A stretch of 64,000 nucleotides of DNA, from contig CM059438.1 of NCBI GenBank assembly GCA_030390025.1, forward strand, positions 82,770,001 to 82,834,000. The letters run 5' to 3'. The notes under the pieces are model-generated. The model was given only the letters and a program-made list of their open reading frames with translations. It did not search any database and was not told where the DNA came from. How positions within the stretch are numbered: position 1 is the first letter of the stretch; each line of letters opens with the position of its first letter. The DNA comes from Squalus acanthias. Its lineage: Eukaryota. The position numbers were made by a program, and so were the translations under genes. Shown piece by piece: positions 1 to 59,114 of this stretch.

Positions 1-2939
1 AAATTTTTTTAAATTGTGCTGGACTCTTACAATTAAGGGACACTAGTGTACTCAGTAAAAAACATAGTAAGATGTCTTGCTCAGTGCAGCAGTAACTTTG
101 GTTCAGTTTAAGACTGCACCATTGGGCAGCATCAAAATTGCTTGATTTTATGCAGGCCATATATTGGCTCTCCTGATATTGAGGTATGGACCCTCTTCTC
201 TCCCACCCAACTAACGCTGTCTGCATCACAAAATCATTAACTTCCCATCATTGCCAGTACTTGGATGATGACTGCAGACATGGAAGTGCTGCTAGTATTG
301 GGGTAAATCCTCCATTATCACCTTGTTGTAGAAGGCAAGGAAGAAACCTTGTGCTCCAGGCTCAATGTATTGTGCCATGCTTTGATGCGAAAAAGCACTT
401 TTGCCTCTTCCCTTTCCGGCACACACGTGAGCACGTTGTATGGATAGTATTATTAAAAATAACTAAGATTTGAAATTTCTTGTGGTTCTTTCTGTAGTTG
501 ATGCCCTTTGTGATGTTCATGTGAATCAGATTGCACTGTAAAGTTGGCCCTATTGTCATTTTGTATTAAAATAGCCTAGTGGTAATGGAGAAACTGCTAA
601 TGCAGGTATAATAATATTAACCACGAAACAATAAAAAAAATTCTCTACCTTTTTTGTAATGAAGTTATGAAAGAAAACAAGGTACACTGCTCTGACTGGC
701 AGGCGCACCATTCCAAATCTGTATTTGTTTAGTGGTAAAAAAGGATAAGTAATTTTACTTCTTTAGCTGGTCTTTCTGCAAATGATATCCCATTGTATTA
801 GGCAGTTTGCATGTGTCCAGGGTAATGTTTATATCTGTGGTCAGACTCAAAAACTGAATTCTGACGTGTGTATTCGGAGAAACTTGCTGGCTATTTCCTC
901 TCTCCCCATCCCCATCTCCTCTTCATTATGCTATTCGTCGGCTGTGCAGTTGCAGTCTTTACAAAGCAAAAGAGATAACTCAGCATGTTTGCATACATAT
1001 GAAATTGTGTTTATGTCGCCTATTAAAAGCTTGTTAGAAAGGCATGGATTTCTACTGGTGACAGTCATAAATTATAAACATTATATCTCAGATCAGGGTT
1101 TATCAGAGAGTGCTGCAAATGTGGCTGCAGTATTCTAATCCAAAATGAGGAAAGAAAAAATTATTTAAAAACTGCAAATACTGGTTTGCAAACTAGTAAG
1201 ATGGACGTTTGATATTTTTGTAGCATCTCTGAATAGGCAAGGAACAATTCTGAAGAATTGGTGGGATGATCCTAACTTGGAATTTGTTTAAGAAATGGCT
1301 GAAAAATCAGATTTTTTGTCGGAAATGTTTATCCTATGTTGCAGGATAAGCTTTGATTGAAATGCCCTTAATTTATAAAATTAATAACTTGTTATGCAGC
1401 TGTAAGCCTCAGCAACATGCAGGCATTGAATTGAAACCCCTGCTGATGTGGCCAGGAGCTATAGTTCAGTGTGTTTTCATTTATTCAGTTTTCCTGCCAG
1501 TGGAACATGTGCAGCAGTTTCTGTGCTTAAAGGGTTAATGGTGCAGCACTTGTAAGGCTAACTTTTGGCCTCTATTTGACCCCTTTGTGGGGATGAATTC
1601 CTTAAATACTTGCAGTATCATGTCATCTTAATGTTGAGAGGAGCAAGGCAGGGGCGCTCCAAAAAAAAACTGCCCAAGCTGATCCAGTGGTAAATTTATT
1701 TTTTGCAACAAGGTATTTGTAAAGGGCTTGTGCAGCAGCAGTTAGCAACTTTAAGTGTTCCAAATTAATTTTGAAGAAAAAATAATTCGAACATTTCAAA
1801 AAGTCTTAAAGTGGTAACATAGGAATTTCTATTATTTAATATTTTTTGATGTTTGTAATAATTCAGTTGTTTCTTGTATAGTAGAAAAGGCTACAAGTTG
1901 AACAAGTGAAATTAACAAAATTACAGAATACCTCCATATCTGAAATTGACATGCACACAGCACATCTGGCACACCTGGTACCTGATTTCGCAGGTTTGCA
2001 TTCACAAAGACACACTCCTGTTCTTCATAAAAATTCCCCTTCTCTGCACTGTTTTTTTTAAATTTAGAGGTTTTCAGATTGTTCATTACAAGATTTTCAA
2101 AATCTATATAAAAAGACGTCCCATTGTTTTAAAATTCAGCATGTTTAAATTTTAAATTTAGCCATATATGAGCACATTTCTCCTGTAGCTGTTGAATGTA
2201 TAGAAAATGTATGACAATTGGTTCCATTCCCTAAGGATAATTTGGATGTTTCTCTACCCCCCACCCTCGCCGGCCAGTCCCTAAGGAGGCCTAATAGAAG
2301 CAAATTAAACTGCAGGGTCTTAAAACTCATTGTGGAAATTGAAGGCTTTGCTCTCGGTAACTGTAAAGGATCAAATGCAAGCTGTTTATATTTCTTTCAC
2401 TATGTCGCAGCAAAAGTATTTGACTTTTTCTGAAAAGGGGCTAAATAGGTTATAAATTTTTTAATGCCATGCTGTAACTGTTGAACCATTTCTTCAACAA
2501 AATTGCAACTGACTATTGCTTTGGTTTAATTAGAATGGCAGGTCACCTCTGTGTGGATGACCTGGACTGAATTTCCTACAGATATGGAAAAATAAAAACC
2601 TTTCCACTGGCAAGACTTTAGATGGTAAATTATAGACGCTTAGATTTTATTTATTTGATTGACTGATACAAAACACTAGGCTTGTGTGTTAATGCTCTGA
2701 GAACGACTCTTTACGAGTACAAGAGATTAGAAAATATTTGATAACTTTTTTTTCTGCCATTTTTCTCCCCATCTGAAACTGTGAAATCATTACTTGGGTG
2801 TGGTTTCATGAGTGCTAGCTCCATTGTGGTACATCGCACATTATTCATACGTGTTCCTTTAGAGTGGGCCTTGGCAAACTGTTCGACTGCAGGGGTATCA
2901 CCGCTGTGTTTGATCTTGTCCTCCCGTACCCACACATGC

Positions 2940-3110
2940 ACACTTCTAACACTGGGTAATGAAGTGGAGCAGGAAATCTGGCTGTTTTCTCCCTGAGGAG
3001 TATCAGATCAATTGTAGCATCTGACTCAACCCTGACTGAGATCAGCTAATTTAGCACAAAGCAGGGATTAAATCTGAGATCTTACTGGCCTGTATGGGGT
3101 GAGCAGGTAA
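2940..3110 (-). mobile_element. Decayed ancient SINE fragment (AmnSINE2-like family)
   Basis: ctgagatcagctaatttagcaca and caattgtagc are shared with the copies at 11270, 40275 and 43670. The family name is from recall. Confidence 0.45.
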
Positions 3111-58030: not shown

Positions 58031-58166
58031 ACGAAAACGACGCAATTTCAGCAAACAAGCAACAGAAGTCTTGAACGAGTATTTTTACTCGCATCTCAGC
58101 AATCCATATCCCAGTGAAGAAGCCAAAGAAGAGCTGGCAAAGAAGTGCAGCATCACAGTATCACAG
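58031..58166 (+). CDS. PBX3: PBX (PBX3-like) coding exon, equivalent to exon 5: N-terminal part of the TALE homeodomain
   Basis: AG|A split codon, then [45 protein letters not shown], which includes the TALE loop and PYP. Acceptor gtgttttcag ends at 58030 and donor gtgagc starts at 58167. Confidence 0.96.
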
Positions 58167-58235
58167 GTGAGCTGGGGCATCTTGCAACTTCTGAATTTAG
58201 TCCAAAGGAAAATACCACCTCTAGGTTAAATATTG

Positions 58236-58435
58236 CGGAGATGCCGGTGTTGGACTGGGGTGGACAAAAATGAGAAGTCGCACAACACCAGGTTATAGTC
58301 CAACAGTTTTATTTGAAATCACGAGCTTTCGGAGCGCTGCTCCTTATGACTTTACCTGACGAAGGAGCAGCGCTCCGAAAGCTCGTGATTTCAAATAAAA
58401 CTGTTGGACTATAACCTGGTGTTGTGCGACTTCTC
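58236..58435. mobile_element. Penelope-like element terminal-repeat fragment, inverted pair, 13-bp TSD
   Basis: TSD aggttaaatattg at 58223-58235 and 58436-58448. Perfect 75-bp inverted arms at 58271-58345 and 58362-58436. Contains a hammerhead core. Confidence 0.85.
58352..58388 (+). ncRNA. Minimal type I hammerhead ribozyme motif (Penelope type)
   Basis: Stem I uuac/guga. CUGACGA at 58356-58362. Stem II ggagc-agc-gcucc. GAAA at 58377-58380. Palindromic AGCU replaces stem III. Predicted CUC cleavage after 58384. Confidence 0.7.
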
Positions 58436-59114
58436 AGGTTAAATATTGGAAGACGGGTAGGAAAAATGGCTTAGAAACCTTTATGTTCAACGTGATACTT
58501 CAAATTCACCCATAATGGTATGGATTAGGTATAGTGGCTGATGTTTTCTGTTAGAGGAAATCTGCTCACAGTTTATAAAACTGATGGTTGAGTTGCTATT
58601 TGTTTAATCTGGTTCATTCTCTGACTTGATATTGCAGTTGACTAGATGCAAAAATAGACAGCAGCTAACAAAAAATGTAAACTTGCAGAAGATATTGAAT
58701 AATGATTGACTGAAAATATTTGATTACTGAAAAAATAATCATGCAAAACAATTGCAAATTACTGAAATTAATTGAATATTACATAAAAATGTAAGTATTT
58801 ATGAAGCACAAAAATCATAAAGTTGTGCAATGAATTGGCCATCCCCAAAGCTCCTGAATTAAATTTTCACAATGTGGAAATGTGCTCCTGTGTAAAATAG
58901 CAATATGGTCCAGTTGTTTTTGTGGTACTTGTGGAATTCATGCAGCATATCAACAAATTTCTGCCTTTATACAAGATGAATGGTCTGGAACTGAAGTTTA
59001 AAAAAAATATATATTTATATTTATAGACTCATAATTGTTCAGCTATTGGGGCTGAGGTTTCTTTTCTGTAGGCCAACAATCCCTGCATCTAACGTGCCTC
59101 ATCTGCAGTTAAAA

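Follow-up and report, generated by a model that had tools for sequence, protein, structure and literature searches.

The closest described systems are EN+ Penelope-like elements (PLEs), whose insertions carry an inverted, 5'-truncated copy joined head to head, a tail at one end and a target-site duplication (TSD), and whose pLTR contains a hammerhead, a TATA box and an Inr-like motif, with the ORF starting at the pLTR end (PMC3846280; PMC8557442). The one-sided tail, of 30-40 bp, is described in these two sources and in PMC11167929. The insertion reported here is alike in all these respects, but the copy itself has no ORF and both of its arms are cut to less than 130 nt. A strict one-tail rule and an extra G are features of the present family that were not found in the available portions of the text of PMC3846280 and PMC8557442. 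The Poseidon element PAc of Anolis is alike in having two 3' end positions 30-40 nt apart and in that its copies contain sequence 5' of the ribozyme cut site; it differs (PMC11167929) in that the present family has a CX4CxxC motif, places the ATG at the tail end and not in stem II, and uses the two sites one per arm.

Two further systems are related through the ribozyme. The minimal hammerheads of metazoan PLEs have the same core boxes, an extra base between positions 9 and 10.1, a G10.1-C11.1 pair, palindromic 15.2-16.2 positions and a 4-bp helix I, and close hammerhead pairs on opposite strands had already been noted among them (PMC4209133); helix II of the putative ribozyme is 5 bp here against 7-8 bp in the Schistosoma families of that source. 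Non-LTR retrozymes (10.64898/2026.07.22.740005) are likewise hammerhead-bearing, non-coding and pLTR-related, but they form tandem arrays, whereas the element described here is one inverted pair with a TSD.

The insertion in the PBX intron

The window, a stretch of 64,000 nucleotides of Squalus acanthias DNA, contains 200 nt lying between two 13-nt direct repeats in an intron of a PBX-family gene. The host exon was matched by Pfam to Homeobox_KN (E 1.4e-9), and 42/45 of its residues are identical to a PBX1 chain. Its GT donor is at 58167, and the intron runs for about 12.1 kb to the next homeodomain exon. The distance of 69 nt from the homeobox exon to the element, given by an earlier note on this DNA, holds, and the duplex starts 104 nt from the donor. 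The features are as follows:

58032..58166, plus strand: host exon; it encodes the first 45 residues of a PBX-family (TALE) homeodomain
58223..58235, no strand: left TSD, 13 nt, the final 2 nt shared with the element
58234..58270, minus strand: 35-37-nt Penelope "tail" confined to the long arm, stopping a few bases short of the element ATG
58234..58345, minus strand: long pLTR arm, element +14 to +125, 5'-truncated, without CUGANGA
58346..58348, plus strand: junction filler, two unmatched bases and then a G immediately before element +1
58349..58436, plus strand: short tailless pLTR arm, element +1 to +88, from the likely transcription start
58352..58388, plus strand: minimal type I hammerhead motif, with cleavage predicted after 58384
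58394..58399, plus strand: AATAAA hexamer in the right arm interior, on the PBX sense strand, a candidate signal only
58436..58448, no strand: right TSD, 13-nt direct repeat

The complementary arms (58271-58345 and 58362-58436) are 75 nt each, 100% complementary and 16 nt apart, and the hairpin fold scored z = -22.7, with 0/200 shuffles as good. Re-measurement returned the dimensions claimed by the earlier note, namely a 200-nt insertion, a 13-nt TSD, perfect 75-bp arms and a 16-nt loop, and identified as the Penelope tail the segment 58234-58270, which that note had left unexplained. The edges of the TSD are ambiguous by 1-2 nt, since TG at 58234-58235 and A58436 also match the element. Locus L043 has a pLTR to which both arms are identical, the long one over 112/112 nt and the short one over 88/88 nt. 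The G of the junction filler is likely a copied cap, a reading that is inferred from the family data given below. An AATAAA hexamer occurs in both arms, each on its own sense strand (58394-58399, plus; 58308-58313, minus), and the plus-strand one could act as an intronic polyadenylation signal for PBX.

The hairpin is a recent head-to-head pair of truncated Penelope-like pLTRs, and very probably a neutral passenger of the PBX intron with a hammerhead predicted to be silent.

The Penelope family and its paired arms

The 200-nt cassette is a repeat, matched over nearly its full length (89-100%) by 40/40 scored candidates. Three mutually exclusive exact patterns detected at least 8,507 arms in the genome (4,803 + 3,184 + 520), with 0 hits for the reversed-pattern controls, and three insertions were present in 24 arbitrary 10-kb stretches (239.5 kb), giving a rough density, from these three events, of one copy per 80 kb or so. 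In loci L081 and L082 the repeat flanks a broken ORF encoding a reverse transcriptase (RT; Pfam RVT_1, E 5e-9) in a pLTR-ORF-pLTR arrangement: read on the minus strand, the sequence of the left arm leads in these copies to an ATG, the broken ORF and a second repeat copy. Because the arm repeat is thus the pLTR around an RT ORF, the hairpin consists of two pLTR stubs that meet at their 5' ends. The Penelope origin put forward in the earlier note was borne out by this terminal-repeat similarity, as the same repeat flanks an RT-encoding element. The L081/L082 translations also contain a CX4CxxC motif and, by eye, a GIY-YIG-like motif after the RT, while Pfam gave no match for the 186-aa endonuclease fragment. 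A CX2-5CxxC motif upstream of GIY-YIG is a mark of the Neptune and Nematis clades (PMC8557442), and from its CX4CxxC motif the family appears to be a Neptune-like (Neptune/Nematis-like) Penelope.

Some long copies have a more complex structure. A GC-rich block of about 0.7-0.9 kb interrupts their 5' part (L081, about 2330-3050; L082, 8388-9282; and L056), lying inside the ORF in L081 and inside the pLTR in L082, and is probably a secondary insertion. A 436-bp local duplication in L035/L036 takes in a tail end, and contig C64 carries two near-identical loci, L005 and L006, separated by 114 kb. No literature title on the present family or on a cap-derived G in PLEs was found, which does not establish absence from print.

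The arm survey covered 220 loci and yielded 321 distinct arms and 139 pairings, reduced to 132 pairs by keeping the closest partner and dropping seven rows. The dropped rows include the only two short-short pairings, which were looser and came from loci with further copies (L021, L103). Resemblance to the window copy was the basis on which the first 29 of the 132 pairs were chosen, and the duplicates L005/L006 are included; 50 arms had no partner inside their own locus. The 3' ends were bimodal, with 162/321 arms ending at +67 to +100, 159 at +119 to +131 and none between, in a survey whose reference ends at +131 and in which 50 loci were chosen on the tail. Every one of the 132 pairs joined one long, tailed arm to one short, tailless arm, and the same layout was present in 67/67 pairs from sets not chosen on the tail. 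An exact TSD of at least 7 nt flanked 117/132 pairs (mode 12, range 7-19 nt). The hammerhead core was intact in both arms of 64/132 pairs, in the short arm only of 36, in the long arm only of 15 and in neither arm of 17. Arm lengths and junctions varied from about 0 to more than 1,000 nt.

The same central junction was seen in separate insertions (L112, L154, L160 and L019), either because joining favours that point or because a finished hairpin was copied. At about position 500 of L229, some 10 nt of tail stand in front of a short arm that looks solo, indicating that some "solo" copies are pairs whose long arm has been almost wholly trimmed.

Other classes of element were considered for the window copy. 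MITEs and DNA transposons have inverted repeats at both termini and a TSD of fixed length, and were rejected on account of the one-sided tail, the TSD of 7-19 nt and the variable centre. A non-LTR retrozyme was rejected because there are only two arms, inverted, and the next family copy lies about 45 kb away.

Element start and route of insertion

A TATATA motif stands at exactly -30 in 51/73 copies that reach upstream and at -33 to -30 in 64/73, and +1 is the commonest single 5' breakpoint (22 arms, unbiased sets), so that, as judged from these sequences, +1 looks like the transcription start of the element. Genome-wide, the base before +1 was G in 2,982 copies and A in 398; one base further upstream, G and A together accounted for 520, and the first 100 of these, counted by hand, gave a ratio of about 55:45. 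The genomic template base before +1 is C or T. In L221 and L222, loci picked for that trait, a non-templated G precedes +1 on both arms. The signal was weaker in a small unbiased sample, where G preceded 12/22 arms starting at +1 versus 29/63 arms starting at +2 to +30, and many of the Gs before +1 can also be read from the partner arm. A 22-row test for the cap-derived G (21 G) was set aside as biased, as 11 rows had been picked because they resembled the window copy, and the partner arm explained five others. Copying of the cap into an extra G is known from L1 elements, and the extra G before +1 in the present family would fit a cap copied by reverse transcription.

The tail rule, the TATA spacing, this G and the mixing of subfamilies make it likely that both cut strands prime on capped sense RNA. 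Our reading of the whole route, slightly more probable than not, is that the two cut strands each prime at one of two fixed start sites on capped, uncleaved sense RNA, at least sometimes on two RNAs, and that the products are joined head to head. In the window, the element endonuclease would have cleaved the two target strands at points about 11-13 nt from each other. One strand would have primed at about +125 of the element RNA, producing the tail, and the other at about +88. Reverse transcription of both would have proceeded towards the capped 5' end of RNA that the ribozyme had left uncut, and the two cDNA ends would have been joined, one of them having been trimmed to +14. In PMC11167929, two internal start sites define the tail, and the enzyme cut and extended both strands; the two groups of 3' ends found here match those two start sites. 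Start-site use in vitro did not differ between strands in that study, and strict pairing of a long with a short arm is therefore not predicted by it.

The arms themselves carry information on the number of templates. By inspection, the two arms carry different variants at several subfamily sites in at least 7/132 pairs (L026, L055, L057, L104, L203, L209 and L211), an indication that some events used two RNA templates. Arms of the same pair nevertheless agree at variant sites above chance (0.96 versus 0.73 at +39), which also fits one template or later conversion, and the mean number of mismatches is 1.8 within an insertion versus 3.1 between insertions. The last comparison, the identity of the arms in the window and the exact recurring junctions at L112, L154 and L160 are what would be expected of a hairpin formed on one template by fold-back self-priming, for which PMC3846280 proposed an antisense RNA, or of a mobile palindromic unit. 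Against such an origin stand the variable arm lengths and junctions, the pairs that differ at several subfamily sites and the non-templated G on both arms of L221 and L222; moreover, the short arm of the window contains +1 to +13, which the long arm is missing, and so was not copied from the long arm as it stands. We therefore consider such an origin improbable.

Hammerhead, host gene and age

The core of the motif comprises CUGACGA (58356-58362), an extra A (58363), a 5-bp stem II (58364-58376) and GAAA (58377-58380); cleavage is predicted after C58384, at the end of a CUC triplet, and stem I is 4 bp. The minimal type I anatomy claimed earlier agrees with the feature list of PMC4209133, in the core boxes, the extra base after A9, G10.1-C11.1, the palindromic 15.2-16.2 positions and the NUH triplet, while an Rfam scan of the window gave 0 matches at gathering scores. 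The claim of a complete core on the plus strand only also stood: the minus-strand arm ends at 58345 without CUGANGA, because this long arm is 5'-truncated at +14. As a monomer, the motif has a stem III limited to a 4-nt palindrome (duplex -2.5 kcal/mol). Position 17 is C or U in 273/274 family copies, which descend from few source elements. In the family copies of X6 and X10, runs from two other organisms, the base before the predicted cut is U almost throughout, versus C at 58384 in the window, both being NUH. A single minimal hammerhead did not cleave in vitro (PMC4209133), and the Anolis hammerhead required protein for cleavage and was not needed in insertion (PMC11167929).

In folding, the pairing probability of stem II was 0.0 with the upstream arm and about 0.95 without it, in agreement with the earlier proposal that this arm sequesters the ribozyme. 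In PBX pre-mRNA the antisense arm would come first and would base-pair with the arm that carries the ribozyme, which follows automatically from the geometry. A head-to-head pair places the antisense arm first in transcription on either strand, and the cage therefore needs no selection. That caging explains the tolerance of the insertion, as had been suggested, is unsupported, since all 132 pairs have the cage layout; the explanation is unnecessary rather than refuted. No second family copy is present within the 12.1-kb intron. A solo, tailless and uncaged copy, flanked by a 12-nt TSD and with a core that looks intact, lies on the PBX strand at L089:8972-9060 (G000:C14:82872972-82873060), about 31 kb past the last PBX exon located; this distance beyond the last located exon led to its rejection as a within-gene uncaged control.

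Contigs from two other organisms, X6 (record 25) and X10 (record 9), have the flanks joined across one TSD copy, so that the presence/absence comparison asked for in the earlier note yielded an empty site in both. Their flanks differ from the window at 15/738 (X6) and 33/922 (X10) aligned bases, or about 2-4%. By these comparisons the insertion is young, given the empty site in two relatives and the identity of both arms to the L043 pLTR. Same-species contigs (X1) enter the element from both flanks; X5, of which 55% was read, lacks the left flank and is no guide to polymorphism. Conserved intronic hammerheads of the amniote kind form a family conserved at an orthologous intron position, and this origin was rejected for the window copy because of the empty site in the two related organisms. 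The X14-X17 runs, guessed to be RNA, gave coverage of the repeat only, without exon or flanks; A>G differences on the repeat were rejected as editing, as they come from pooled family copies and are present in DNA runs too.

Two explanations would give the hairpin more than a passive place in the intron. The same origin could be combined with a selection filter, under which sense-strand hammerheads persist in introns mainly when caged upstream. Caging does hold in folding, position 17 is cleavage-compatible in nearly all copies of this family of few sources, and a preprint (10.64898/2026.07.22.740005) reports that tandem hammerhead retrozymes are depleted, indeed excluded, from introns, which makes selection against intronic hammerheads plausible; but caging is the default insertion product, the monomer has its 4-nt stem III palindrome and no partner in the intron, and published monomers were inactive (PMC4209133), and we regard the filter as decidedly improbable. 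It is highly improbable that the duplex, as an adopted sequence or otherwise, regulates the processing of PBX by way of editing, splicing or early polyadenylation. A perfect 75-bp duplex close to the donor and the AATAAA at 58394 would suit such a role; however, two related organisms, with flanks only about 2-4% different, lack the insertion, the identity of the arms to another family copy gives no sign of adaptation, and with a copy every 80 kb or so insertions in genes are expected. The splicing modifier envisaged in the earlier note is for these reasons unsupported, and the hairpin is best read as a passenger.

The locus in the window is one young copy among many thousands and matters little by itself. 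What the family statistics inform is how Penelope insertion is completed, its later steps being described as not yet validated in PMC11167929. They yield testable predictions: each strand should use one start site, a G should derive from the cap, and two RNAs should give rise to chimeric arms. Two-strand priming, if true, would take the place of antisense self-priming as a model and account for the tail being one-sided.
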